Assembly: GCA_035474375.1 (NCBI GenBank)
Contig: DATINJ010000382.1
Location: forward strand, 2,068 to 66,067
DNA: 64,000 nucleotides
Direction: 5' to 3'
From: Kineosporiaceae bacterium
Lineage (GTDB): Bacteria > Actinomycetota > Actinomycetes > Actinomycetales > Kineosporiaceae
Under the pieces are notes generated by a model. The model had not been told where the DNA came from. It made no database searches and was given only the letters and a program-made list of their open reading frames with translations. Shown piece by piece: positions 15,422 to 56,837 of the stretch. Made by a program: the position numbers and the translations under genes. How positions within the stretch are numbered: position 1 is the first letter of the stretch; each line of letters opens with the position of its first letter.

Positions 15422-15553
15422 GTCGCACGCCACGATCTCGCGGTCGTCGTCCGCTCCGCGCGTCCTCTCCTCCACAGGCGGCAGTTCTGCGCCTCGATCC
15501 ACAGATTTCGGCCGGCCGCCGTCCGTCGGCCACCTGCCGGGCAGGCTGTCTGT

Positions 15554-16306
15554 ATGCCAGAGGTACCAATCACAGTCGGGTCCGGCCTGCGCGCCGGTTT
15601 GCGTGCCGGGACGACGCTGATCTGGCCGGTCAGCTGCGCGGGTTGCGGGTTGCCCGACGTCCCGATCTGCTCACGGTGTCGGGCCGCCGTCGCCGGGCCG
15701 GCCTTCTGCACCCCGGTGGTTGGCTGGCCCGCGGGGTTCGGCGCCTGGGCGGCGTGCAGCTATCGGGGCTGCGCAGCGCGGCTACTGATCGCCTGGAAAG
15801 AACGAGGCCGGCGCGACCTGACCGGGCCGCTGGGAGCCGGTCTGGGTGCGGCGCTGCTGGCCTGCCGGGCCGCGCACGCTGACCCGGCGTCGCCCTGGTT
15901 GCTGGTCCCGGTTCCGACCACCCGCGCCGGCCGCCGTCAGCGCGGCGGTGACCTGATGGTCGACTTGACTCGTCGGGCGGCAGCGACCTGCCGGCCGGCC
16001 TGGAACGGGCCACCACCGCAGCCGGTTCAGGCCCTGACGCATGTCCGAAGGGTCCGCGATCAGGGGGCGCTGGGGGCCTCTGGCCGGCGCGCGAATCTGC
16101 GTGGAGCCCTTGCGGTCCGGGATTCGATGACAGATCTGGTGTCCGGGCAAAGCTGCGTGGTGGTCGACGATGTCGTGACAACTGGGACAACAGCGGCCGA
16201 AGCGGCGCGGGCGTTGACATCGGCAGGTGCACGCGTGGTGGGGGCTTGCTTCCTCTCAGTGACATTGCGTGAACTGGGGGTGCCCGAGGAGGCATCTAGG
16301 GACTAG
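15554..16306 (+). CDS. comF: ComF family protein (ComFC-like phosphoribosyltransferase)
   Basis: N-terminal Cys-rich zinc-finger-like CAGCG...CSRC and a C-terminal PRTase motif VVVDDVVTTGTT. Confidence 0.75.
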   Translation: MPEVPITVGSGLRAGLRAGTTLIWPVSCAGCGLPDVPICSRCRAAVAGPAFCTPVVGWPAGFGAWAACSYRGCAARLLIAWKERGRRDLTGPLGAGLGAALLACRAAHADPASPWLLVPVPTTRAGRRQRGGDLMVDLTRRAAATCRPAWNGPPPQPVQALTHVRRVRDQGALGASGRRANLRGALAVRDSMTDLVSGQSCVVVDDVVTTGTTAAEAARALTSAGARVVGACFLSVTLRELGVPEEASRD

Positions 16307-24771: not shown

Positions 24772-25374
24772 CTAACCGATCTCCAGTTCGGTGACTCGCC
24801 AGCGACCGTGTAGGCCCTCCATCCGGAATGCGACTGCGCGAACCCGATCGGGTTCGGCAATGACGGCACTGACCTCGCATACCCCGGCCCGGGGGGCGCA
24901 GGCGACCAAGGCGCGAACCCGAGGCTTGGACGCCGTGGCGATTCCCCGTCTGGCTCTGGCTGTCAGGGCTCCCCGACGCACGAGGATGGCGTGCACCTCC
25001 GGGGTGGTCCAACGCACCAACTGCCCGGCCGAGCGCAGCCCGCCCGCCACCTCCATGGCGGCCTGGATGAACGTGGCGGCCCAAAGCTTCGGCTCAGGAA
25101 GCAAAGCCGCACGGTCTGGTTTCCGCTTGGCTGTCGCCTGGGCGACCGGCTGCTCGGATGCGCTGAGGTCGACAGCTTCGGTTGGTAGTGCCAGCGCCAG
25201 CGTTCCCTGGGTGTGCGCCGTAGTAGTCGTTCGGTCGTATCGGAAAACTCTTGAAGCGGAACGTGGTTCGTGTTTCGGAACGGCGGAGCGGCGGAGCCGG
25301 GGTAGGGTCGGATTGGCGGCGATGCCAGGAGTGCTTTCGGGTGGTCGGGTGACCGGTAGTGCCGAACTCATCAT
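24772..25374 (-). CDS. Rv3235-like conserved actinobacterial protein
   Basis: Start set at the ATG 25374, which forms an ATGA overlap with the upstream LysM gene stop. The C-terminal part resembles the family conserved downstream of secA. Confidence 0.6.
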   Translation of the reverse strand: MMSSALPVTRPPESTPGIAANPTLPRLRRSAVPKHEPRSASRVFRYDRTTTTAHTQGTLALALPTEAVDLSASEQPVAQATAKRKPDRAALLPEPKLWAATFIQAAMEVAGGLRSAGQLVRWTTPEVHAILVRRGALTARARRGIATASKPRVRALVACAPRAGVCEVSAVIAEPDRVRAVAFRMEGLHGRWRVTELEIG

Positions 25375-26408
25375 CCACCTCGATTCTCGGAGTCGGCCGT
25401 AACACTGGTTCCAGTAGAGGTTTTCGCATCGTCTCGGGAGCCGGACCGGGCGGCTGGTCCAGCTCGATGGCGGCCGAGGTGAGCGTCCGATGCGGGTGGA
25501 CGCAGCCGCTCCCCAGGAACGAGATAGTCGGGGTCGTTGCCGATTACAGCTCGATTCGCGGTGAACCAATGTGGCCAGTCGCGGGCGATCTCTGCGTTCG
25601 TCGCCGTCGGGCCGAGGTGGTGTTCGGCGACGCTCCACAGCGTGTCGCCGCGGCGCACGACGACCTCGTCATCGCTCGTGGACGGCTTCCTCGTGGACGA
25701 CTCGCTCGCGGCCGGCGCTCTCGTCGGCGGCCTTCTCGTGGGCGACGTGCTTGTGGGTGGCGTGCTTGTGGATGGCTCGCTCGTGGGCGACGTGCTTGTG
25801 GACGGCTCGCTCGTGGGCGATGCGGGTCTGGGCGGACGGTTCGGGATCCATCCCGGAAGCAGTTCGGATTGCGGTGCTGGGGTCGGGGCGAGGCCGCGAG
25901 TGATGGGTCGAACAGTGGCGGCGGCTACCGGAGCCCAGGCTGGGGATAGTCCTTCGGTAAGGAGCGGTTGTGCGCCACGGGTTCGAGTGGCTACCAGTTC
26001 CGAGGCCGGGTGCCGGGCGCTCGCGTGCGCGGTGGCAGGACCGGCCGCGATGGCGACCCCGAGCACCGCAGCGACGGCGTTGCGCAGTGCTTTGGGCGCC
26101 AGTACGCGGGCGGTGCTGGTCACGGTGGTGCCGACGGCCGAGGATCTGGACCCGAGTGCCGCCAGCACGCTGAGAAGCAGGGCGCTGAGCAACCAGAGCG
26201 AGATGGCCAAGGCCACAGAACCGCAGATGGCGGCCAGTGCCTGGTCGACGCTGGCCGGACCGGGTTCAAGCACCGAGCGCCAGGCGGACTCGCTCACCGA
26301 CATGAGTTGCAGGCAGAGCATCGCCAGCAGGGCGAGTCCCGAGCCGGTAAGGGCTAGCCCGCGAGTTCGGGGCGCGGAGAGTGGTTGACGAATCTGAGGT
26401 GAGTTCAC
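25371..26408 (-). CDS. Membrane-anchored LysM peptidoglycan-binding protein with a Pro/Ser/Thr-rich linker
   Basis: Start set at the GTG 26408 with a GGAGGAG RBS directly upstream. TM helices, PST repeats, C-terminal LysM (VRRGDTLWSVAEHHLG...VPGERL). Confidence 0.7.
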   Translation of the reverse strand: MNSPQIRQPLSAPRTRGLALTGSGLALLAMLCLQLMSVSESAWRSVLEPGPASVDQALAAICGSVALAISLWLLSALLLSVLAALGSRSSAVGTTVTSTARVLAPKALRNAVAAVLGVAIAAGPATAHASARHPASELVATRTRGAQPLLTEGLSPAWAPVAAATVRPITRGLAPTPAPQSELLPGWIPNRPPRPASPTSEPSTSTSPTSEPSTSTPPTSTSPTRRPPTRAPAASESSTRKPSTSDDEVVVRRGDTLWSVAEHHLGPTATNAEIARDWPHWFTANRAVIGNDPDYLVPGERLRPPASDAHLGRHRAGPAARSGSRDDAKTSTGTSVTADSENRGG

Positions 26409-26511
26409 GTCTCCTCCGGCCCTTGGCTGACGCTGTTCCAGCACTTGATGTCGTTTGATGCCTTTTAGTGTCGCTTGATGCAAGTGATGGCGTCCAGTGC
26501 TGCGTCGAATC

Positions 26512-26520
26512 TGTGGATAA
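26512..26520. promoter_or_regulatory. TTATCCACA box (reverse orientation) in the divergent promoter
   Basis: The plus strand reads CTGTGGATAAG. The box is 39 nt upstream of the ATG at 26559 and 104 nt upstream of the GTG at 26408. Confidence 0.6.
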
Positions 26521-26558: not shown

Positions 26559-27107
26559 ATGCGTTGGGAGCGACTGTTCGACGATCTCGAGGCGCAGTTG
26601 GAGGCAGAGGAACGCACTGCTGCCGAGGGTGAGATCGCCGATCTCGTCCGTGCTGAGCGCGCACGCCTGGCTGTCGTCGATCGATTGAAAGCCCACCTCG
26701 GTGAGCCGCTCACCTGGGCATTGGTCACCGGTGAACCGGCATTGACCGGTCGATTGCTGGACGTCGGTGCCGACTGGGTGCTGGTCGCGACGGCAAGCGG
26801 GGAGTCGCTGATCCCGATCGGCGCGGTCCAGTCCATCACTGGGTTGTCCCGGTTCACTGCGCCGGAGGCCGGCGAGGTCGCGCGACGACTGGGGATCGGA
26901 GTGATCCTGCGTGGGTTGTCCCGTGACCGCGCTGTGGTTGGGATCCGGCTAAAGGGAGACCAGCGAGTGACCGGAACCATCGACCGGGTCGGGGTCGATC
27001 ACTGCGATCTCGCCGTCCACCCGGAGGACGAACCCCGCCGCGAACGCGCGGTGCGTGAGGTGCGCTGCGTGCTGCTGCCCGCCATCGTCGGGGTCAGCGT
27101 TCGCTGA
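26559..27107 (+). CDS. Conserved hypothetical protein
   Basis: 182 aa with protein-like composition and high GC3. No motif recognised. Confidence 0.6.
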   Translation: MRWERLFDDLEAQLEAEERTAAEGEIADLVRAERARLAVVDRLKAHLGEPLTWALVTGEPALTGRLLDVGADWVLVATASGESLIPIGAVQSITGLSRFTAPEAGEVARRLGIGVILRGLSRDRAVVGIRLKGDQRVTGTIDRVGVDHCDLAVHPEDEPRRERAVREVRCVLLPAIVGVSVR

Positions 27108-27231: not shown

Positions 27232-27468
27232 TCAGGCGTCGTCCGCGTGATCCTCGACCGCCGTTGGCCGGGACCGGACCATGTCCCGGGTCTCGGCGTA
27301 CTTCCGCTGGATGTAGTTCTCCAGTTCGGTGGCTTCCACTCGCCACTGGCCTCGGCCGCCTACCTGAATCGCCGGTAAATCGCCGCTGTGGACCAGCGTG
27401 TAGGCCTGCCTCGCCGAGATGTTCAGCATCTCCGCGACATCCGCCAGTTGAAGAAAGCGGGGTTCCAC
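27232..27468 (-). CDS. Excisionase-type (HTH_17-like) helix-turn-helix DNA-binding protein
   Basis: 78 aa with a GTG start and an AGGAGG RBS 5 nt upstream. HTH segment LADVAEMLNISARQAYTLVHSGDLPAIQVGGRGQWRV. Confidence 0.8.
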   Translation of the reverse strand: MEPRFLQLADVAEMLNISARQAYTLVHSGDLPAIQVGGRGQWRVEATELENYIQRKYAETRDMVRSRPTAVEDHADDA

Positions 27469-27546
27469 GCAGCCCTCCTGTGATTTCGGCCGAGCGAATA
27501 CTCGGTTCCGGCAAGTGTGGCACGCAGGGTTGTCGGCCGTGTCGAG

Positions 27547-27582
27547 TTATCCACAGGCCAGAGGACCGGCGGTTTATCCACA
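27547..27582 (+). promoter_or_regulatory. Two direct perfect TTATCCACAG boxes, 27 bp apart
   Basis: Boxes at 27547-27555 and 27574-27582, between the HTH gene (minus) and the SAF-TadZ operon (plus). Confidence 0.65.
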
Positions 27583-27737
27583 GTTCCCGGAATGGCTGTC
27601 CCGAAGGTCCGTATTCTGCCAACATGTCGGCGAAAACGTGCGAGGTGAAGGGTTGGATCAGAATCGTCGGCTTCGAGGGTCTGCGGGGAGAAGTTGCGGG
27701 TAGGAGCAGGCAGAGCCGGTCGGCATCGGTCCAGTAG

Positions 27738-27805
27738 TGCAGATGATCCGGCAATGCAGATGATCCGACGATGCAGATGATCCGGCGGCTCAGGTAGTCC
27801 GGCGG
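27738..27805 (+). repeat. 3-4 x 17-bp direct repeat upstream of the SAF gene
   Basis: TGCAGATGATCCGGCAA, TGCAGATGATCCGACGA and TGCAGATGATCCGGCGG, plus a degenerate fourth unit. It ends 23 nt before the ATG at 27828. Confidence 0.85.
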
Positions 27806-27827
27806 GGCAGACAGAGGGGGCACCTCA

Positions 27828-28514
27828 ATGACGCTGACCGGTACCGCCGCGCCACTCAGCGAGCTCACGGCGCCTCGGCTGAGACGACCTTCGTGGCGCG
27901 ATCCCCGATTGTTGATCGGGCTCGTCCTGCTGCTCACCTCGGTAGCTCTCGGTGCCAGGGTGGTGGCGTTGGCCGATCGCACCGAACCGGTCTACGCGGC
28001 GCGGGTCACCCTTCCGTCCGGAACACCGCTTACCTCCGACGCGCTGAAGGTCGTCCGGTTTCGGCTCACGGGCACGGCGGCCGGCTACCTGGACGCGCGG
28101 CACCCCCTGCCGGCGGGCCAGGTCATGGTCCGGCCGGTCGGTGCCGGGGAACTCGTCCCACTCACCTCGATCGCCTCGGCCGGTCAACTCTTGGTCCGGC
28201 CGGTGAGCATCCCGATCGACGCTGATCCGCCACGCGGGCTGGCTCCCGGTGGCGTGGTGGACCTCTGGGCCTCCGCCAAGCGCCGGGACGACGTGGGCGG
28301 TGGATATGACCCGCCCGAACAAATCGCCCATGCGGTCGAGGTCTTCGACCTGCGCATCCCGGGCGCTGGGCTGTCGGCGAGCCGCACCGGATCCGTCGAG
28401 GTGCTGCTGAGTTCCGAGGATCTCGCGCCGGTGCTGGATGCGCTGGCGAACCAGGCACGAGTGGCGGTCTTGCCGGTGCCCGGCCTGATCGCTCGCGATC
28501 AGGAGCAGCGATGA
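27828..28514 (+). CDS. SAF domain protein (CpaB/RcpC-like Flp pilus assembly component)
   Basis: N-terminal TM followed by a SAF-like domain. GAGGGGG RBS. ATGA overlap with the TadZ-like gene. Confidence 0.7.
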   Translation: MTLTGTAAPLSELTAPRLRRPSWRDPRLLIGLVLLLTSVALGARVVALADRTEPVYAARVTLPSGTPLTSDALKVVRFRLTGTAAGYLDARHPLPAGQVMVRPVGAGELVPLTSIASAGQLLVRPVSIPIDADPPRGLAPGGVVDLWASAKRRDDVGGGYDPPEQIAHAVEVFDLRIPGAGLSASRTGSVEVLLSSEDLAPVLDALANQARVAVLPVPGLIARDQEQR

Positions 28515-29887
28515 GTCGTACCGGGGCAACACTGACTGTCCTGACCGCCGTTGTCGGCGACGGCGAGGCTCCGTTGGTCTCCGGCCTGGAACGCTCCTCG
28601 GCCGGTGTCCAGGTCGTCCGCCGATGCGCTGATCTGGTCGAACTGTTGTCGGCGGCAGCAGCCGGGTTGGCCCGAGCGGTCGTGCTGTCCGCGGATCTGC
28701 AACGCCTGGATCGCGACGCGATAGCCCAGCTGACCGCGGTTGGCGTGGCCGTGATCGGGCTGTTCGATCCGAAGGACGCTGCGGCCGCCCGAAGGCTGGC
28801 CGATCTCGGAGTGCAGCAGGTGTTGCCGGCTGACACCCCGACCGAGGAGATCGCCGCAGCGGTGACGTCAGCCGTCGCGGATCTTTCCGATCACCAGGCC
28901 CGAGCCGCTCGAAGTCGGTTGGGGATAGCGGATCCGGGCCTTGCGGCGCCGGCTCCGCCGAGCAGGCGTCGGGCCGGGTCGGTGCCGTCGGCTCGGCCGC
29001 CGGGCCGGGTGGTCGCCGTCTGGGGCCCGGTCGGCGGACCCGGAAGGACGACGGTCGCAGTCACGCTCGCCGCCGAACTGGCGGCGGCCGGTCACGAGAC
29101 CTTGCTGGTGGACGCCGACACGTACGGCGCGAGCGTGGCTCAGTCGCTGGGCCTGCTGGACGAGTCGGCAGGCCTCGCCGCGGCTGCTCGGGCTGCGAAC
29201 CAGGGCGCCCTGGACGTTCCCCGGCTCGCCGAGTTCGCGCCCTATGCCGGGGCGCGATTGCGCGTACTCACCGGACTTCCGCAGTCTCGTCGCTGGCCGG
29301 AACTGCGCTCCGCCGCGCTGGACACGGTCTGGCAGCACGCTCGCCGACTGGCAACCTGGACGGTGATCGATGCCGGATTCGGCTTGGAAGCGGACGAGGA
29401 GATGATGTTCGACACCGCTGCTCCACGCCGGCACGGGGCCACCCTCTCCGCGGTGACCAGCGCAGATCTGGTCATCGCCGTCGGTGCCGCCGAGCCACTG
29501 GGGCTGCAACGTCTGCTCAGCGGGCTGCAAGATCTTGCCGAGGTCGTACCGGCCGGCTCGCCGCTCAAAGTGGTGGTGACGAAAGTCCGTGACGCCGCGG
29601 TCGGGGCGAACGCCGAACAACGGGTTCGGGAGGCGTTGGACCGCTATGCCGGGGTCCGGGACGTGGTGCTGATCCCAGACGATCGGGCGGTACTGGACGC
29701 GGCCATGCTGGCTGGTCGGTCGCTCACCGAGCATGCGCCGACCGCACCGGCGTGCCGGCCGCTGACCGAACTTGCGAGCCACCTGGCCGCCGAGGCCGGC
29801 CTGCGTCACGATCAAGGGCGATCCGGCGGACGTCTCGGTCGAGGGGGACGGCGGCGCGGCCCGCGCCGGGCCCGCCGCTCAGCCTGA
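28511..29887 (+). CDS. TadZ/CpaE/Ssd-like ParA-MinD family protein
   Basis: N-terminal receiver-like domain plus a ParA-type domain (VVAVWGPVGGPGRTTVAVTLAAELA...LLVDAD). Both P-loop lysines are absent. Confidence 0.8.
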   Translation: MSRTGATLTVLTAVVGDGEAPLVSGLERSSAGVQVVRRCADLVELLSAAAAGLARAVVLSADLQRLDRDAIAQLTAVGVAVIGLFDPKDAAAARRLADLGVQQVLPADTPTEEIAAAVTSAVADLSDHQARAARSRLGIADPGLAAPAPPSRRRAGSVPSARPPGRVVAVWGPVGGPGRTTVAVTLAAELAAAGHETLLVDADTYGASVAQSLGLLDESAGLAAAARAANQGALDVPRLAEFAPYAGARLRVLTGLPQSRRWPELRSAALDTVWQHARRLATWTVIDAGFGLEADEEMMFDTAAPRRHGATLSAVTSADLVIAVGAAEPLGLQRLLSGLQDLAEVVPAGSPLKVVVTKVRDAAVGANAEQRVREALDRYAGVRDVVLIPDDRAVLDAAMLAGRSLTEHAPTAPACRPLTELASHLAAEAGLRHDQGRSGGRLGRGGRRRGPRRARRSA

Positions 29888-44714: not shown

Positions 44715-45809
44715 TCAGAGTTCCTCGGTCAGCCCCGACCGAAGCATCGCCAGGCTCTTGGCCAGCAGCCGGGAGACGTGCATCTGAGAGACGCCGACCT
44801 CGCTGGCAATCTGCGACTGCGACATCCCGCGGGCGAAACGCAGCTCCAGGATTCGCTGCTCCCGGGCCGGCAGCCGGGCCAGGAGCGGCCGCAAGGTCTC
44901 GCGCTGTTCCACCAGTTCCAGCCCTGAGTCCTCGAAAGCCTTCGCCATCCGGTCCGACTCGTCCGCAGATGTCGGCAGCGGCACGGTGATGTACGCGGTG
45001 GCGGTCTCCAGTGCTTCCAGGACGAGATCCGCGTCCACCTCTAGGTAGGCGGCGATCTCTTGCACGGTGGGCGAGCGGTCCAAGTTGTGGGTGAGTGTCT
45101 CCCGGGCCTCGGAAACCCGTCGTCCCAGGTCTTGGACCCGGCGCGGGATCCGCATTGCCCAACCGCGGTCTCGGAAGTGCCGGCGGATCTCGCCCACGAT
45201 CGTGGGGACGGCGAACGCAGCGAATGAGCCGCGACCGGGGTCGTAGCGGTCGACGGAGTGCAGCAGGCCGATGGTGCCGACCTGGACGAGGTCGTCGTAG
45301 GGCTCGCCACGCCCGCGGAATCGCTGCGCAAGGTGATGGACGAGCGGCAGGTGCGCCTCGATGACGGTCCGGCGCAGGGCTCCGTATCGCGGATCGGCCG
45401 AGGACATCGTGGCGAGCAGGACGAGTCGATGGTCCACCCGGGGATCGGACACCCGCGGACCGTCGTCCTCGCTGACCTCAGCGCCTGGCGTCGCTGTGCC
45501 GGCGGCCTGGGGACTGAGCTCGGCCTCGGTGGGCGCACTGCCGCCGACGGCGCCGGAGCCCGCGGTGTGGGCGGTCGCGGTACGGGCGGTCGCGGCGCGG
45601 GCGGGCTCGTGGCCCCGGGTCTCGTGGCCTCGGGTCGTGCCGCCTCGGGTATTGGCGTCTCTGGTCTCCACCGTCGCTGAGGTGGTATCAGTCGGCGAGA
45701 ATTCCGTCGTTGGGAGGGCACCTCCCGGAAGGCGTTCGCCGAGGATTCGCTGCGTCGGTGGCCGATGCAAAAGGCTCAGCCGAGCATCGGTGGTATCTGG
45801 GCGGATCAC
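44715..45809 (-). CDS. SigB/SigF-type (group 3) RNA polymerase sigma factor with a long low-complexity N-terminal extension
   Basis: Regions 2-4 are recognisable (DLVQVGTIGLLHSVDRYD, RIPRRVQD, GMSQSQIASEVGVSQMHVSRL). GTGA overlap with the anti-sigma gene. Confidence 0.88.
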   Translation of the reverse strand: MIRPDTTDARLSLLHRPPTQRILGERLPGGALPTTEFSPTDTTSATVETRDANTRGGTTRGHETRGHEPARAATARTATAHTAGSGAVGGSAPTEAELSPQAAGTATPGAEVSEDDGPRVSDPRVDHRLVLLATMSSADPRYGALRRTVIEAHLPLVHHLAQRFRGRGEPYDDLVQVGTIGLLHSVDRYDPGRGSFAAFAVPTIVGEIRRHFRDRGWAMRIPRRVQDLGRRVSEARETLTHNLDRSPTVQEIAAYLEVDADLVLEALETATAYITVPLPTSADESDRMAKAFEDSGLELVEQRETLRPLLARLPAREQRILELRFARGMSQSQIASEVGVSQMHVSRLLAKSLAMLRSGLTEEL

Positions 45810-46213
45810 TCGGTTCCCCGTCCAACGTGGGTCAATTTGATCCAGGAGCCACTGTCGTTGACGCCGACGATGACTTCACCGGCGAGGGCGCGAAGGACCG
45901 TCCAGGAAAAGCTTGCGCCAGCCGGCAGTTCCTCGACCGGCCCGGCGATGATGACCGAGATCGTGCTGTTCCCGACGCTGAACGCGGCGTTCAGCGTGCG
46001 GCCCGGATGTGCGCGCCCGCCCAGGAGCAAGGAGCAAGCCTCATCCACGGCTATCCGCAGATCCTCGATCTCGTCCAGCGTGAGCTTCAGGCGAGTGGCC
46101 AGACCGGCTGTTGCCGTGCGGACCACGGAAAGATACGCGGGGTCGGCGGGAACTCGGAGATCCACCGCGTCCGTCGTCGTTACCGCCGCTTGCCTTTGAT
46201 CGCCACGCGTCAT
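45806..46213 (-). CDS. RsbW/UshX-like anti-sigma factor (HATPase-type)
   Basis: Start set at the ATG 46213 (GTG at 46222 is possible, with a GGGGGG RBS-like run upstream). Core motif VPADPAYLSVVRTATAGLA...EIEDLRIAVDEA. Confidence 0.75.
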   Translation of the reverse strand: MTRGDQRQAAVTTTDAVDLRVPADPAYLSVVRTATAGLATRLKLTLDEIEDLRIAVDEACSLLLGGRAHPGRTLNAAFSVGNSTISVIIAGPVEELPAGASFSWTVLRALAGEVIVGVNDSGSWIKLTHVGRGTE

Positions 46214-46421
46214 GGTGCTCACATCCCCCCGTGACAACGGTAGGCCTGCTGGACAGTTGCGGTGCGCGGTTCGTTCGTTACTGAACGAGACCAATGTCAC
46301 CATCGGGCAAGAATAGAACACGTTGCGTGGTGAATGTCGACGCTATCCGAAGTTCAATCTCACTCAGTCAGAGTTGCTCGTTGCTCTATGTCACAACGCC
46401 CAGGAAGGCGTGCGCGGTCAG

Positions 46422-47071
46422 TCACATTGGACGATCGCTCAATGCTTTAAGTGATTCATCCGTGACCCGCCATACGGTCCAGTCATCCTGTGGCACGGCC
46501 CCGACGCCGCGATAGAAGCGATGTGCCGACTCATTCCAATCCAGCACACACCACTCCATCCGGGCATATCCCCGACTGGTGCAAATGTTTGCGAGTTCCG
46601 CCAGCAGGGCACGCCCAACACCGAGCTGTCGGTAGGCAGGCTGAACGTAGAGATCCTCGAGCCAGAGACCATGTCGGCCTCGCCAGGTAGAGAACGTGAC
46701 AAACCAGATCGCCAGCCCCACCACCGTCGGGCCTGCCGGGCCGTCCAACTCCACGACATGGCAGTGCACTCGCGGGTGCGGGTTGAAGAAGGCGGCACCG
46801 AAATCCTCCGGCGTTGCCTTGACGGCGTTCGGTTCGCGTTCGAAATCGGCGAGTTCCCGGACCAAACTGTCGATCTGAGCCACATCGCCGGGCCGAGCCG
46901 GGCGTACCCGCCAGGCCGCCGCAGATGCCGTGGACCCGGAGGTTGGCGTCACGGATTCGGATATGGCGGGCGATACTTCGGGGGATTCTGGGGCGGTGGG
47001 TCCAGACACGGTGGGCATCACCGGGGCACCGGTGACGAGTGTGCCGTCGGGTCTTTCCATGGCATCCGAGG

Positions 47072-47075
<4 letters not shown>
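46422..47075 (-). CDS. GNAT acetyltransferase (diamine/SSAT-like) with a Pro/Ser/Thr-rich N-terminal extension
   Basis: Core motif LYVQPAYRQLGVGRALL...RMEWCVLDWN. ATGA overlap with the stop of the upstream FtsK-domain gene. Confidence 0.85.
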
Positions 47076-51799
<4,724 letters not shown>

Positions 51800-51842
51800 G
51801 CCGAAGATTCTGCGGGCCGGGTCCGACAGCCGACCTGAGCCC

Positions 51843-51897
51843 TGTGGATAACGTAGCCGCCGAGACTTCCCCTGTGGATATCGCCGGTTTATCCACA
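51843..51897. promoter_or_regulatory. Cluster of three TTATCCACA-type boxes in the divergent EssC-like / cpaF promoter
   Basis: TGTGGATAA 51843-51851, TGTGGATAT 51873-51881 (30 bp apart, both preceded by CCC) and TTATCCACA 51889-51897. Confidence 0.65.
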
Positions 51898-51936
51898 ATT
51901 TACGGTTACCTTCTGCGCGAAGTGTCCGAGTTTCGT

Positions 51937-53253
51937 ATGCTTCCTTCTCAATCGCTGGCAGCGCCCGTCAGATCAACTCTGTCCGTGATCGAGCCCGGTG
52001 ATGAATCGAGAGCGGGGGTGGTCGTGGACGCCGTGGCGATCGTGTCCGACGAGGTCCGAGACCTGATTCGGCGCGAAGGCATCGACCCGGGCCGAGATGT
52101 CGGGCGGTTGCGCCGGTTGGTCGAAGCTGTCGTCGCTGACTACGACGAACGTTCGCTGACCAGAGCGTTGCCACCGCTGATCGATACCGCGATCGCCGTG
52201 AAACGGGTGCTGGACGACGTCGCGGGCTTCGGTTCGCTGCAGCCATTTCTTGACGACCCGGGCATCGAGGAGATCTGGATCAACGAACCTGGCAAGGTTT
52301 TCATCGCCCGCTCCGGTGTCAGCGAACTCACCTCCGTCATCTTCACCGCCCAAGAGGTCCGAGACCTGGTCGAGCGAATGCTCAAGAGCAGTGGCCGCCG
52401 GGTCGACCTGTCCAGCCCTTTCGTCGATGCGATGCTTCCGGACGGCTCCCGGTTGCACGTCGTGATCCCGGACATCACTCGAAGCGAGTGGGCAGTCAAC
52501 ATCCGAAAATTTGTCATCCGGGCGACAACGCTGGACGACCTGGTCACGTTGGGAACGCTCACCCCGCAAATGGCCGACTTCCTGGTCGCTTCGGTGGTCG
52601 CCGGGCTGAACATCCTAGTGTCCGGCGGCACTCAGGCCGGCAAGACGACGATGCTCAACTGCCTGCTGGGGGCGGTACCGGCTCGCGAACGAGTGATCAC
52701 CTGCGAGGAAGTCTTCGAATTGCGGGTGCCGATCCGAGACTGGGTGGGAATGCAATGCCGTCAGCCCAGTCTCGAAGGTACCGGCGAGATTCCGCTGCGT
52801 CGGCTGATCAAGGAAGCCCTCCGGATGCGACCCGACCGACTGATTGTCGGTGAGGTGAGACAGGCCGAAAGTCTTGATCTGCTCCTTGCTTTGAACAGCG
52901 GCCTGCCCGGCATGGGGACCATCCATGCGAATTCCGGGCGAGCCGCGATCATCAAGATGTGCACGCTTCCGCTGCTCGCAGGCGAGAACGTGAGCGCTCG
53001 ATTCGTCGTTCCGACGGTTGCGAGTTCGATCGATCTGGTGGTGCAGATCGCGCTTGACGGTGACGGTCGACGTCGAGTCCACGAGATCATCTCGGTTCCG
53101 GGCCGGGTCGAGGGTGACGTGATCGAGACCGCCGAGATCTTCGTCCGACGTGATGACCGGGTAGTGCGCGCAGATGGGTTCCCTCCGCACCCAGATCGCT
53201 ACCGGCGTGCCGGGATCGATCTCCCGGCGCTGCTTCACGGCGGCTGGAGGTAA
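51937..53253 (+). CDS. cpaF: CpaF/TadA family secretion ATPase
   Basis: Walker A VSGGTQAGKTT and Walker B RLIVGEVR. The start is uncertain (ATG 51937; GTG options at 51985-52024). The track start 51844 lies inside the low-GC3 box cluster and was rejected. Confidence 0.88.
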   Translation: MLPSQSLAAPVRSTLSVIEPGDESRAGVVVDAVAIVSDEVRDLIRREGIDPGRDVGRLRRLVEAVVADYDERSLTRALPPLIDTAIAVKRVLDDVAGFGSLQPFLDDPGIEEIWINEPGKVFIARSGVSELTSVIFTAQEVRDLVERMLKSSGRRVDLSSPFVDAMLPDGSRLHVVIPDITRSEWAVNIRKFVIRATTLDDLVTLGTLTPQMADFLVASVVAGLNILVSGGTQAGKTTMLNCLLGAVPARERVITCEEVFELRVPIRDWVGMQCRQPSLEGTGEIPLRRLIKEALRMRPDRLIVGEVRQAESLDLLLALNSGLPGMGTIHANSGRAAIIKMCTLPLLAGENVSARFVVPTVASSIDLVVQIALDGDGRRRVHEIISVPGRVEGDVIETAEIFVRRDDRVVRADGFPPHPDRYRRAGIDLPALLHGGWR

Positions 53254-53256
53254 CCG

Positions 53257-54117
53257 GTGGGTGTCCTGGTCGGGTTGCTCTCGGGTACTGGTCTGTTCTG
53301 CATCTGGTGGTCGTTCTGGGCTCCGTCCGTCTCCTCAGCTCCCGGCTCTATCGGGCCGGTGGCCAGGGTCCGGGAGTTGTTGATCCAGGCAGACCTCCCG
53401 GCAGTCAGCCCGCAGGCGCTGGCGTTGACCTGCGTCGGCGTCGGGATCACCGGGTTTATCGCCGTGTTCGCGCTCAGTACCGTGCTGGCGATCGCGGTGT
53501 GCTTCGCGCTGTTGGCGACCTGGCTACCGGTGTCCCTGGTGATGGCTCGGGCCAGACGTCGTCGAGAGCGATGGCGTGAGTTGTGGCCGGAGGTCGTGGA
53601 CAACCTCGGTTCCGGAGTGCGGGCAGGGCTCTCGCTGCCCGAGGCGCTGGGGCAGATCGGCCAGCGCGGCCCGGAACCGCTGCGGGCTCCGTTCATCGCG
53701 TTCGCCCATGATTACCGCCTGACCGGGAACTTCGGCGAGGCGCTGGACGCACTCAAGGAGCGGCTCGCGGATCCGGTCGCTGATCGGTTGTGCGAGGCAC
53801 TGCGAATCACTCGTGAAGTCGGCGGGTCGGATCTCGGCCGGCTCCTTCGCGGACTCTCCGCCTTTCTTCGTGAGGACGCCCGGACTCGCTCCGAACTGGA
53901 GGCCCGGCAGAGCTGGACGGTCTATGCGGCCCGACTGGCCGTGACCGCGCCGTGGCTGGTCCTTGGCCTGCTCGCGACCAGACCGGAGTCGGTGGCCGCG
54001 TACGACCGCCCGGCAGGGACCGTCGTACTGCTGATCGGAGCAGTGGCCTCGGTGGCCGCTTACCGGCTGATGGTGCTGATCGGTCGGCTGCCCGAAGAAC
54101 AGCGGGTACTCAGATGA
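53257..54117 (+). CDS. tadB: TadB-like type II secretion system F-domain membrane protein
   Basis: GTG start with a GGAGG RBS 7 nt upstream. T2SSF domain and TM helices. Confidence 0.8.
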   Translation: MGVLVGLLSGTGLFCIWWSFWAPSVSSAPGSIGPVARVRELLIQADLPAVSPQALALTCVGVGITGFIAVFALSTVLAIAVCFALLATWLPVSLVMARARRRRERWRELWPEVVDNLGSGVRAGLSLPEALGQIGQRGPEPLRAPFIAFAHDYRLTGNFGEALDALKERLADPVADRLCEALRITREVGGSDLGRLLRGLSAFLREDARTRSELEARQSWTVYAARLAVTAPWLVLGLLATRPESVAAYDRPAGTVVLLIGAVASVAAYRLMVLIGRLPEEQRVLR

Positions 54118-55058
54118 CCACTGAACTGTCGGCCTCCGGTGCGCTCTTCGGTCTCCTGGCCGGTCTCGGCGGCTGGCTGATAATCAGCCGAGTGCCCTGG
54201 CGCCGAGCACCGACACTTGATCAACGGCTCGCACCGTATCTGCGCGGAATCCACCCTGCTGGGCGCCCCTCGGTCGCGGCGCCTGCGCATCACTCCCCGT
54301 TGGACGTCGTTGAGCGGGTTCTGGGCCCGTTCATGGGCGACGCCCTGCGCTGGGTGGAACGAATCAGCGGTGGCACCGGAACGGTACGCCGCCGCCTCGA
54401 CCAACTCGGCGGCCGGCGAACCATCGATCAGTTCCGCGCCGAGCAGGTGATCTGGGGTGTCGTCGGAGCCGCGGCGGGAGCAGCGATTGGTGGTCTCACT
54501 GTGATCGGGCGGGGCTTCAGCGTCGTTCCAGTCGTCGGGCTGGTCGTGATCGGAACACTGCTCGGTGTGCTCGGCCGCGACCTTTGGCTCAGCTTCCAGG
54601 TTCGCCGCCGCGACCGCCGCATCCTGGCTGAATTCCCAGCCGTCGCTGAGCTTCTGGCGCTCGCAGTCGGAGCCGGGGAAGGGCCGATGGGAGCGCTGGA
54701 GCGGGTCGCTCGCACCTGCCGGGGCGAGCTGTCAGCCGAGCTGCGGCGCACGGTCGCCGAAGTGCGAACCGGAATGCCGCTGACCGATGCCCTGACCGGG
54801 CTCGCGAATCGGACCACCCTGCCCAGCCTCGCTCGTTTCGTCGACGGAATCGTCGTTGCGGTGGACCGAGGCACCCCACTGGCAGAGGTGCTTCGCGCCC
54901 AAGCACAGGACGTTCGGGAGTTGACCCGCCGACAGCTGATGGAAGCAGGTGGCCGTCGCGAGATCGGGATGATGGTCCCCGTGGTATTTCTGGTGCTCCC
55001 GGTCACCGTCCTCTTCGCCGTCTACCCAGGGCTTGCCGTCCTGGATCTCAATCCGTGA
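54114..55058 (+). CDS. tadC: TadC-like type II secretion system F-domain membrane protein
   Basis: ATGA overlap with tadB. T2SSF domain. Confidence 0.8.
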   Translation: MTTELSASGALFGLLAGLGGWLIISRVPWRRAPTLDQRLAPYLRGIHPAGRPSVAAPAHHSPLDVVERVLGPFMGDALRWVERISGGTGTVRRRLDQLGGRRTIDQFRAEQVIWGVVGAAAGAAIGGLTVIGRGFSVVPVVGLVVIGTLLGVLGRDLWLSFQVRRRDRRILAEFPAVAELLALAVGAGEGPMGALERVARTCRGELSAELRRTVAEVRTGMPLTDALTGLANRTTLPSLARFVDGIVVAVDRGTPLAEVLRAQAQDVRELTRRQLMEAGGRREIGMMVPVVFLVLPVTVLFAVYPGLAVLDLNP

Positions 55059-55074
55059 CCCAAGGAGAGCACCG

Positions 55075-55353
55075 ATGAAGCTAGGTTCGATCGACTATCG
55101 GATCGGCCGACCGAGGGCAGATCGCCTGGACGCCGATGATCTCCTGAACCGGGCTTTCAGATGGAGTCTTTCGGCGAAGCAACGGATCTCGGCGCGAGTC
55201 TTCGACGTCAACCCGGAGCGCGGTGACGTGTCGGGCTGGGTCTTGGTGACCCTGATGACCGCCGGTCTGGTGGTGACGCTCTGGGCGGTGGCCGGCCCGC
55301 GTCTGGAGGAGGTGTTCAACGACGCGATGGACCGAGTGGTTGGCGGGCCGTGA
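55075..55353 (+). CDS. Flp-like / DUF4244-like small pilin-type protein (atypical)
   Basis: AAGGAGAG RBS. 92 aa with ERGDVSGWVLVTLMTAGLVV, a hydrophobic helix in the position of the Flp mature N-terminus. Confidence 0.55.
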   Translation: MKLGSIDYRIGRPRADRLDADDLLNRAFRWSLSAKQRISARVFDVNPERGDVSGWVLVTLMTAGLVVTLWAVAGPRLEEVFNDAMDRVVGGP

Positions 55354-55846
55354 GCACCCGGAGGCCGAACTGCGGGCACTGGAACGACGGGCATCGGAGC
55401 GCCGGGCCTTGGAACGCCGGGCACTGGAACGACAGGCATGGGAACGACAGGCAGTGGAACGGGTAGCCGACCGGGGCGCGGCGATCGTGGACTTCGTGCT
55501 GGTCGGCGGGCTATTGACGCTGCTCTTCCTCGCCGTCCTGCAACTCAGTATCGCCTTGCACGTGCGTAATGTATTGGTGGACTGTGCCTTTGAGGGAGCC
55601 CAGTTCGGCGCGCTGGCGGACCGGGATCCCCAAGCCGGCGCCGACCGGGCCCGCGAGCTGATCCGCAGTGAGCTGTCCGATCGGTATGCAGAGCAGGTCT
55701 CGGCCGGACTCGCCTGGGTGGACGGGCTGCCAACGGTAGAAGTGCGGGTCGAGGCGCCGCTACCGGTAATCGGCGTGTTCGGCGTCGGCCGGACCCTGAC
55801 CGTGTCCGGTCACGCGCTCGCCGAACAGCCCGTCCCGCAGCCGTGA
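55340..55846 (+). CDS. TadE-like pseudopilin protein (start uncertain: TTG 55340 or GTG 55454)
   Basis: RGAAIVDFVLVGGLLTLLFLAV resembles a TadE N-terminal motif. It is preceded by an in-frame (A/S)(L/W)ER(R/Q) x6 repeat. Confidence 0.7.
   Translation: MAGREHPEAELRALERRASERRALERRALERQAWERQAVERVADRGAAIVDFVLVGGLLTLLFLAVLQLSIALHVRNVLVDCAFEGAQFGALADRDPQAGADRARELIRSELSDRYAEQVSAGLAWVDGLPTVEVRVEAPLPVIGVFGVGRTLTVSGHALAEQPVPQP
55374..55463 (+). repeat. 6 x 15-bp tandem repeat
   Basis: GGGCACTGGAACGAC-type units at 55374, 55389, 55404, 55419, 55434 and 55449. Confidence 0.9.
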
Positions 55847-56325
55847 GATCGACCGCGCGGTCAACCGCCTGGAACCGGCCCCCTGTCCGGGACGACGGGT
55901 CGGCGACGATCGAGTTCGTTGTGATGGGGGTCTTGCTGCTGGTACCCCTGGTTTACCTCGTGATAGCCCTCAGCCGGATCCAGGCTGCTGCCTTCGCCGC
56001 CGACAGTTCCGCCCGCGAAGCAGCCCGCGCTTTCGTCACCGCGACTGAAGAGGATGACGGACGGCGTCGCGCATCGGTCGCCGTCCAGCTCGGTCTGCGT
56101 GATCAGGGATTCGGCAACCCCTCCGATGGTGATCTGGCAATCGAATGCGAAACGTCAAGGGCTTGCCTGACCCCGGGCAGTCAGATCCGTGTCCTGGTGA
56201 CGGTCCGAGTCATCCTGCCCGGCGTCCCACGATTTCTTGGTCACGCCTTGTCGACCGATGTCACCGTTCGCGCCCGACAGCTGGCAGTGGTGGACCAGTT
56301 CCGGGCGCAAGGTGGAGATCCATGA
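55843..56325 (+). CDS. TadE-like pseudopilin protein
   Basis: GTGA overlap with the previous gene. DDGSATIEFVVMGVLLLVPLVYLV motif. Confidence 0.7.
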   Translation: MRSTARSTAWNRPPVRDDGSATIEFVVMGVLLLVPLVYLVIALSRIQAAAFAADSSAREAARAFVTATEEDDGRRRASVAVQLGLRDQGFGNPSDGDLAIECETSRACLTPGSQIRVLVTVRVILPGVPRFLGHALSTDVTVRARQLAVVDQFRAQGGDP

Positions 56326-56837
56326 ACCGGCGATCCGAGAGCCAGCAATCGATGAACCGGCGATCCGCTGACCGGGGCAACGACGACGGGCAGATCCTTC
56401 CGCTGGTGATCGCCTACGTGCTGATTGCGTTTGCTCTGGTCGTCGTCGCTGTGAACATCACCGCGGTACACCTTCAGCGACAACGGTTGTTCTCGCTGGC
56501 CGACGCGGCTGCGCTGGATGCGGCCGATGCCTTGGATCGGTCCCGGTTCTATTCCCAGGGCGCGCAAACCGTATCTGGTGATGCGGCGGTGGCCGTTCCG
56601 CTGACAGACCTGACCGTGCGCTCCAGCGCAGAGCGATACGTGGTGGCTGCAGCGCCCTTGGCCAGGGTCGCGGACGTCGCGGTAGATCGGCCCACTGGCT
56701 CGCCCGACGGGGTGACGGCCGAGGTCACCCTGGTCGGACGGGCCACCTTGCCGCTGTTCAGCTTTGCTTCCGTGCGGTGGTCAGATGGCGTTCCGCTCCG
56801 GGCGACCGCACGGGCCCGGGCGCGCGTCTCGCCCTGA
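56322..56837 (+). CDS. TadG / Rv3654c-like pilus assembly protein
   Basis: ATGA overlap with the previous gene. N-terminal hydrophobic helix QILPLVIAYVLIAFALVVVAV. A duplicated ATGAACCGGCGATCCG occurs at 56322 and 56352. Confidence 0.65.
   Translation: MNRRSESQQSMNRRSADRGNDDGQILPLVIAYVLIAFALVVVAVNITAVHLQRQRLFSLADAAALDAADALDRSRFYSQGAQTVSGDAAVAVPLTDLTVRSSAERYVVAAAPLARVADVAVDRPTGSPDGVTAEVTLVGRATLPLFSFASVRWSDGVPLRATARARARVSP

Follow-up and report, generated by a model that had tools for sequence, protein, structure and literature searches.

The window analysed here is a 64-kb stretch of contig DATINJ010000382.1 from a Kineosporiaceae bacterium, and our subject is a 9-bp DNA box, TTATCCACA, that lies in three of its spacers between divergent genes. 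One of these spacers precedes a gene for a cpaF/tadA-type secretion ATPase (52024-53253, plus strand; T2SSE Pfam match and NCBIfam match), which is followed by tadB, tadC, a small pilin-like open reading frame (ORF; 55033-55353), two tadE genes and a tadG-like gene (53257-56837, plus strand). Divergent from cpaF is a gene (47072-51799, minus strand) for a protein of 1575 aa that combines an N-terminal FHA domain with three FtsK/SpoIIIE P-loop domains. The architecture of this FHA-FtsK protein is EssC/EccC-like, but it falls under the cut-offs of those families. The gene order tadA(cpaF)-tadB-tadC-(pilin)-tadE/F-tadG with a divergent FtsK/SpoIIIE gene is that of the tad-1 locus of Micrococcus luteus, in which Mlut_07490 is the counterpart of the FHA-FtsK gene.

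The second group of genes comprises a 78-aa HTH_17 protein (excisionase / BldC-like winged helix; 27232-27468, minus strand), which is the counterpart of Mlut_14660 and a candidate alternative binder of the boxes, and the divergent cpaB-like (SAF) and cpaE/Ssd-like (ParA-type) genes (27828-29887, plus strand), counterparts of Mlut_14650 and Mlut_14640. A gene for a 182-aa protein (26559-27107, plus strand) is convergent with the HTH_17 gene and adjoins it in all related loci; no Pfam, NCBIfam or PHROG match was identified for this protein, and a box lies upstream of its homologues too. The order secA ... DUF6459, membrane protein, 182-aa gene, HTH_17, divergent cpaB-cpaE-(HAD) is kept in Kineosporia succinea and on other long contigs. 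The window as a whole runs through mtrA-mtrB-lpqB-comF-hpf, secA, NAD-glutamate dehydrogenase, pdtaS, a SigB/F-type sigma factor, tad, prfB and ftsE and is, judged by this gene content, core chromosome of Kineosporiaceae. The closest relatives by CpaF are a Kineosporiaceae metagenome-assembled genome (MAG; 95% identical) and Kineosporia mesophila (82%).

Exact copies of TTATCCACA start at 26512, 27547, 27574, 51843 and 51889. These five compare with 0.087 expected from base composition and with a mean of 0.01 in dinucleotide-preserving shuffles, none of 100 of which reached five; because window GC is 67.8%, an AT-rich 9-mer of this kind is very improbable. The excess is weaker when one mismatch is allowed (six matches against 2.5 expected, with five of 100 shuffles reaching six). 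All six boxes are in the spacers between divergent genes, where GC drops to 0.53-0.60.

Three of them lie between the FHA-FtsK gene and cpaF. Box A (51843-51851, minus strand) reads TGTGGATAA on the plus strand and gTTATCCACAGg on the minus strand, and aligns with boxes in the related loci L001 and L002. Box B (51873-51881, minus strand; TGTGGATAT) reads ATATCCACAGg on the minus strand, with one mismatch at position 1, and aligns with the TTATCCACAG box of L001. Box C (51889-51897, plus strand) is an exact TTATCCACA in the context tTTATCCACAa and aligns with CTGTCCACAA of L001. Boxes A and B are carried by 14-nt direct repeats, CCCTGTGGATAACG (start 51840) and CCCTGTGGATATCG (start 51870), that are exactly 30 bp apart. 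Two further boxes lie in the HTH_17 / cpaB-like spacer: one at 27547-27555 (plus strand; gTTATCCACAGg), which precedes the minus-strand HTH_17 start codon, GTG 27468, by 79-87 nt, and one 27 bp from it at 27574-27582 (plus strand; tTTATCCACAGt). The sixth, at 26512-26520 (minus strand; cTTATCCACAGa), is 39-47 nt upstream of the 182-aa gene and is invariant in three relatives.

An earlier note on this DNA, made from its letters alone, had given the coordinates and sequences of boxes A to C exactly. Its description of A and B as direct repeats 30 bp apart with C inverted is correct on the window sequence, its distances from the boxes to the FtsK-like start (CAT 51797-51799) and to an ATG at 51937 hold, and the low GC that it reported near the boxes is found (0.53 locally, 0.68 for the window). 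The part that probably needs revision is its cpaF start at ATG 51937, and with it the spacer length of 137 bp. Counted from that ATG, homology to 80 orthologues starts at about residue 26-30, and the closest relative (the CpaF 95% identical) differs in the stretch from 51937 to about 52010 by a 40-nt indel, a length not divisible by three. The GTG at 52024 is preceded by GAGCGGGGG and is kept in all three aligned sequences, with an alternative GTG at 52018. We conclude that cpaF probably starts at GTG 52024 (or 52018), and that ATG 51937 and the longest ORF over-extend the gene. A start at GTG 52024 gives a spacer of about 224 bp, with 127-181 nt between the boxes and cpaF. A candidate -10 hexamer, TACCTT (51907-51912, plus strand), reads TA[C/G/A]CTT in three relatives, in an alignment of three sequences. 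Box C sits 10-18 nt upstream of this hexamer, and in L001 and L002 an extra box overlaps it. The conserved TA[C/G/A]CTT just downstream of box C may be the cpaF -10 element; a scan of 51700-52100 for sigma-70 consensus promoters and terminators returned no match.

Conservation was assessed in two sets of loci. The first contains 80 genomic loci with a cpaF orthologue (1.40 Mb, from Kineosporiaceae, Dermatophilaceae, other Micrococcales, Jatrophihabitantaceae (Jatrophihabitans), Geodermatophilaceae-like MAGs and others), in which the 350 nt upstream of cpaF make up 2.1% of the DNA. The second contains 80 metagenomic loci found by HTH_17 alignment, about 76 of them usable, in which the 300 nt upstream of the gene make up 6.6%. 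In 60 of the 80 loci the 350 nt before cpaF contain TTRTCCACAG with no more than one mismatch, and in 68 they contain the TCCACA core. The earlier note had named absence of the motif from orthologous spacers as the outcome that would count against it, and the motif is present there, with 48 of the 54 exact TTRTCCACAG copies in the 1.40 Mb located in these upstream regions. For the relaxed form YYRTCCACAG the count is 62 of 92, an approximately 90-fold density excess. The strongest enrichment by a wide margin is that of box-derived 8-mers, found in 20-37 of 79 cpaF-upstream regions vs 0-1.4% of background segments. Upstream of HTH_17, the TCCACA core is found in 71 of about 76 loci, and 53 of the 76 exact YYRTCCACAG sites of that set fall within the upstream 6.6% of DNA, where no other k-mers are comparably enriched. 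Fourteen further YYRTCCACAG sites are at +650 to +1150 of the HTH_17 loci, which is the upstream region of the 182-aa gene. This protein is a probable member of the same regulon, going by the position of these sites. In the long-contig loci (Kineosporia succinea and others) HTH_17 is preceded by boxes, and in one of them, L083, so is the 182-aa gene.

In alignments of close relatives the boxes stay put while neighbouring bases diverge. The position profile covers about 11 bp, g-Y-Y-R-T-C-C-A-C-A-G. It is loosened towards C at positions 1-2 and has either A or G at position 3; in 73-78% of sites the base after the core is G. Most cpaF loci have one or two boxes (range one to four per promoter region, in either orientation), and orientation relative to cpaF or HTH_17 flips between loci, as copy number and distance vary. 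FHA-FtsK is the divergent neighbour of cpaF in only about 30 loci, and boxes are present either way; in L019 and L027, where another gene parts FtsK from cpaF, FtsK has its own box about 40 nt upstream. Partners in direct orientation mostly lie 27-30 bp from each other; where two boxes are close, the preference is for a head-to-head pair at offset 10-12. A helical-phase spacing, as the earlier note had supposed, is not borne out as a conserved rule by these values. Its claim that three divergent promoters share the motif holds, both for the copies in the three spacers and for their recurrence at orthologues of cpaF, HTH_17 and the 182-aa gene. With high confidence we regard the boxes as a true cis-regulatory element, conserved at a set of Tad/competence genes of actinobacteria.

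Near-perfect head-to-head palindromes (e.g., TTGTCCACAGGCCTGTGGACAA) were seen in the Dermatophilaceae-type cpaF loci L005, L006, L011, L012, L017 and L020. The layout in the window is different, so the arrangement of boxes evolves while the unit is kept.

The consensus DnaA box is TTATCCACA, and the actinomycete form is TT(G/C)TCCACA, of which the G variant is called 'perfect' (PMC4285127). By this 9-bp standard the window has five exact DnaA boxes and one single-mismatch copy, and orthologous sites read TT[A/G]TCCACA. The sequence CCCTGTGGATAAC at 51840-51852 equals R1 of the E. coli oriC, flanks included, and R4 of E. coli reads gTTATCCACAGt. Sites that E. coli DnaA binds in vivo are mostly gTTATCCACAg (PMC11317965).

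We compared the promoter boxes with TCCACA-core sites in the origin regions of Streptomyces, Janibacter-like bacteria and Mycobacterium. G at position 10, directly after the box, has frequencies of 0.78 and 0.73 in the two promoter sets and of 0.33 after background TCCACA; in origins it reaches 0.79 of 82 unique Streptomyces oriC boxes, 0.69 of 16 Janibacter-like boxes and 0.87 in rpmH-dnaA spacers. Promoter boxes and oriC boxes alike are relaxed to Y at positions 1-2. G before the box (position 0) is favoured in promoter boxes and in Streptomyces oriC; the Janibacter-like and rpmH-dnaA sets show no such preference. Streptomyces and Janibacter-like origins prefer head-to-head pairs at offset 11, as the promoter sets do at offsets 10-12. 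The Streptomyces and Janibacter-like oriC arrays thus have in common with the promoter boxes an extended consensus, g-YYN-TCCACA-G, and head-to-head pairing at offset 11. They are unlike the window, in which there are one to four boxes per spacer, no dnaA or dnaN was found and C is avoided at position 3.

In Mycobacterium, none of 11 unique oriC and dnaA-promoter boxes has G at position 10. Domain IV of DnaA reads G-RDHTTVMYA in mycobacteria, with a one-residue deletion and Y for H, vs GGRDHTTVMHA in Streptomyces and Janibacter-like bacteria. The E. coli segment, GGRDHTTVLHA, is similar to the latter. Because mycobacterial DnaA and box flanks both differ, the position-10 preference tracks DnaA type, in a sample that is small and partly non-independent. 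The flank contrast separates the mycobacterial origins (L166-L169) from the Streptomyces and Janibacter-like ones (L170-L189), and there may have been a lineage-specific change in DnaA flank preference in mycobacteria.

The functional context of these genes comes from M. luteus, in which tad-1 (Mlut_07500-07560; tadA-tadB-tadC-tadE/F-tadG) is needed for natural transformation (PMC4322843). In a screen for comEA/EC expression the divergent FtsK/SpoIIIE gene Mlut_07490 was among the genes struck, and nearly all comEA/EC up-mutants were altered in Mlut_14660 or its leader (PMC8467076). Mlut_14660, a small member of the HTH-17 'excisionase family', is oriented divergently to Mlut_14650 (SAF/CpaB) and Mlut_14640 (CpaE). 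It could not be deleted; the authors propose that it is a repressor, with binding yet to be verified, and also propose transcriptional interference (PMC8467076). The M. luteus SNP G1607081A goes with a drop in transformability of 100-1000-fold. The window regions 47072-56837 and 27232-29887 have the same families, order and divergent arrangement as these loci, and orthology is judged from these features alone. By this analogy we infer the competence link of the window genes from M. luteus genetics. The two M. luteus papers (PMC4322843, PMC8467076) describe no cis-element or binding site.

The reading that we prefer, and to which we give an even chance, is that the boxes are DnaA-type boxes acting as transcriptional operators of a Tad/competence regulon, with DnaA as the binder. 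The earlier suggestion of a multi-site operator or a DnaA-box cluster is supported by the core, the flanks and the oriC-like pairing, from which we infer, rather than observe, both an operator and DnaA. The regulon would comprise the cpaF-tadB-tadC-pilin-tadE-tadE-tadG operon, the divergent FHA-FtsK gene, HTH_17 with the divergent cpaB-cpaE, the 182-aa gene and possibly comF. DnaA would bind the boxes through domain IV and, where these overlap or abut the putative core promoters, its occupancy would set transcription of the pilus and DNA-uptake genes, which would then follow DnaA level or activity, i.e., replication and growth status. Such control is more likely to be repression than activation, since the boxes appear to overlap core promoters.

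Several points weigh against DnaA as the binder. The oriC comparison rests on Streptomyces, Janibacter-like bacteria and Mycobacterium, not on Kineosporia, and the sites are partly orthologous and to that extent non-independent. C at position 3 is rare in promoter boxes (0.01-0.07) and is the commonest base in Streptomyces oriC (0.38). Double boxes of the E. coli type (two in one orientation with 2-3 bp between them; offsets 11-12) are not enriched in the promoter sets, although this feature, described for E. coli, may not define actinobacterial sites. Most Frankia cpaF loci are without the motif, although Frankia has DnaA. A literature search found no paper connecting the DnaA box or the motif with tad or Flp genes, and no binding or expression data for any actinobacterium. 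The boxes also adjoin a dedicated and autoregulated-looking HTH_17 gene, whose counterpart in M. luteus has the genetics of a negative regulator of com genes; in regulon reconstruction a gene so placed would normally imply a local factor.

It is possible, if rather doubtful, that the boxes are instead the operator of the HTH_17 protein (27232-27468), an Xis/BldC-like binder that would occupy one 10-11-bp site each and repress its own gene, cpaB-cpaE, the tad-1 operon, FtsK and other competence genes. The likeness to DnaA boxes would then be a coincidence, or a mimicry by which it competes with DnaA. The protein matches Pfam PF12728 (E 4e-13) and, above cut-off, the TIGR01764 excisionase domain, and is 70-99% identical to its 120 best database relatives, across many actinobacteria; a sequence search of PDB with it gave no match. 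Its AlphaFold model (pLDDT 84.6) is a winged helix with an extra C-terminal helix (residues 46-66), nearest to the Xis of mycobacteriophage Pukovnik and to BldC (TM score 0.8-0.9 on the target, root-mean-square deviation (rmsd) 1.1-1.3 A). The predicted DNA-binding winged helix speaks for this reading, and an asymmetric site usable in either orientation would fit monomeric Xis-like recognition. The TCCACA core, present in 71 of about 76 loci, is the only widely conserved motif upstream of HTH_17 itself, and M. luteus mutants with raised comEA/EC map to Mlut_14660 or its leader (PMC8467076). A motif upstream of both HTH_17 and linked genes across genomes is the pattern of an autoregulated operator, and regulation of the divergent cpaB operon by DnaA would produce it just as readily. 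The box core hardly varies, and neither do the protein's helix-turn-helix and wing, which agrees with recognition of the one by the other but leaves no variation for a covariation test. The protein would have to match the DnaA box at nine core positions, in both flanks, in degeneracy and in head-to-head pairing, for which chance is very unlikely, and the position-10 G preference follows DnaA domain IV type across clades. BldC of Streptomyces (MerR/Xis-like; PDB 6AMA, 6AMK) has the same predicted fold (TM score 0.82-0.89 on the target, rmsd about 1.2 A) and is likewise a small DNA binder, but it is only 22-26% identical to HTH_17, which has the added C-terminal helix. BldC-type proteins use short-period head-to-tail repeats, whereas the boxes here are 27-30 bp apart or form inverted pairs. 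The DnaA and HTH_17 readings are not exclusive, since any binder of the boxes would share its sites with DnaA. It is unlikely, though conceivable, that HTH_17 (the Mlut_14660 family; near-invariant and possibly essential) is a second reader of DnaA-type boxes, competing or cooperating with DnaA at Tad/competence promoters, and perhaps at oriC, in non-mycobacterial actinomycetes.

Two further explanations keep the boxes and change their role or their reader. DnaA-box clusters outside oriC occur in E. coli (datA, DARS) and also in B. subtilis and Streptomyces, and the boxes might be DnaA titration or recharging sites that modulate initiation, with no role in adjacent transcription. Five perfect high-affinity-type boxes in 64 kb outside oriC would suit such a role, known for clusters in E. 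coli (PMC11317965). We consider it very improbable, in that most loci have only one or two boxes and that the boxes follow the same genes across orders and rearrangements (e.g., the detached FtsK), an attachment that titration does not need. Some other factor might read the motif: a transcription factor encoded elsewhere, or an alternative sigma factor (for instance the product of the SigF/SigB-type gene at 44715-45809), for which the motif would be a promoter element. In its favour, this SigB/F/G-family gene directly follows the FtsK-GNAT pair, with synteny kept in close relatives, and GATAA inside the box is loosely like the sigma-28/WhiG -10 element. Yet the A/G alternation falls within the supposed -10 and the sigma gene is absent from most motif-bearing loci, and a reader of this kind seems to us quite improbable. 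The more specific reading of the box as a sigma-28/WhiG-type -10 or SigF promoter was rejected for its varying orientation, copy number and distance. We also rejected an RNA element (Rfam search of 51000-52600 without a match at E<=1; fold of 51835-52020 at z 0.61 vs shuffles; orientation flips) and an origin of replication: the window is without a dense array (at most three boxes per spacer), its gene content is not of origin type, and no DnaA or DnaN family member was identified among the scanned window ORFs.

Under the DnaA reading the boxes would join a known class of sites. DnaA represses or activates promoters that include dnaA, nrdAB, polA and purH in E. coli, sda and dnaA in B. subtilis, and gcrA, ftsZ and podJ in Caulobacter. 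As in the window, these promoters have consensus boxes in or near them outside oriC, with flanks in E. coli of gTTATCCACAg. They serve replication and nucleotide genes, whereas the set here is one of Tad pilus and DNA-uptake genes across several actinobacterial orders, and the arrangement here is of single boxes, 27-30-bp direct pairs or head-to-head pairs instead of the E. coli double box with its 2-3-bp gap. In Caulobacter, CtrA controls the pilA/cpa Tad genes. There too a cell-cycle or replication regulator is tied to a Tad pilus, but regulator, motif and phylum differ, the candidate here being DnaA. DnaA boxes in promoters are thus known; new, in that they are absent from the literature searched, are the target set, the breadth of conservation and the link to DNA uptake.

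The sole genetic screen bearing on how natural competence and Tad pili are regulated in Actinobacteria, that in M. luteus, named no DNA site. The conserved cis-element unites M. luteus-type loci (HTH-17, cpaB/cpaE, and FtsK beside tad-1) into one regulon, and cannot be told apart from the site that the replication initiator itself binds. Were DnaA to bind this element, DNA uptake would be wired to replication status over a large part of the phylum, and these genes would be a new class of DnaA target. If HTH_17 binds it, a protein of that family would recognise DnaA boxes, which is the more surprising outcome; and if HTH_17 is a second reader beside DnaA, replication initiation would be directly coupled to building the DNA-uptake pilus.

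Some features near the boxes, or resembling them, were noted in addition. Two weak boxes, TCCTCCACAG and CGATCCACAG (15468-15504, plus strand), occur in the spacer between lpqB and comF at a distance of 27 bp from each other, the same as in the pair 27547/27574, and 50-86 nt before the start of a ComF-like gene. The comF-like gene (15554-16306; phosphoribosyltransferase, competence-associated family) is a possible candidate for a further regulon member. On the minus strand at about 27500-27625, the blocks TGGCAGAAT and TG(C/A)CA(C/G)ACT flank two boxes and are conserved in Kineosporiaceae-type loci. They look like extended -10 elements (TGn + NANNNT) directed towards HTH_17; if they are, there would be tandem promoters with boxes between them. 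A perfect-looking 17-nt tandem repeat, TGCAGATGATCCGGCAA (2.9 copies, 27738-27786), between the boxes and the cpaB-like start was considered as an HTH_17 array and set aside as a window-specific insertion, absent from five related loci.

The spacer with box 26512 is shared by the 182-aa gene and the divergent gene for the membrane protein (25371-26404), which has a Pro/Thr/Ser-rich repeat (PTSEPSTSTS...); a LysM domain suspected by eye in its C-terminal segment has no Pfam match. An element GGCATCAAACGACATCAAACG at 26445-26480, with a 10-nt period and TTGATG repeats on the plus strand, adjoins the box and is found in L081, L083, L086 and L087. As a general motif this element (CATCAAACG twice) was discarded, being present only in that spacer of close relatives and absent at other promoters; it may serve as a promoter or be bound by a second regulator. 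Directly downstream of FHA-FtsK, 44715-47075 encodes a SigB/SigF/SigG-family sigma factor (44715-45809; 364 aa, with a long N-terminal extension) and a GNAT acetyltransferase; the sigma gene is syntenic in L001, L002 and L010, and the GNAT gene in L001.

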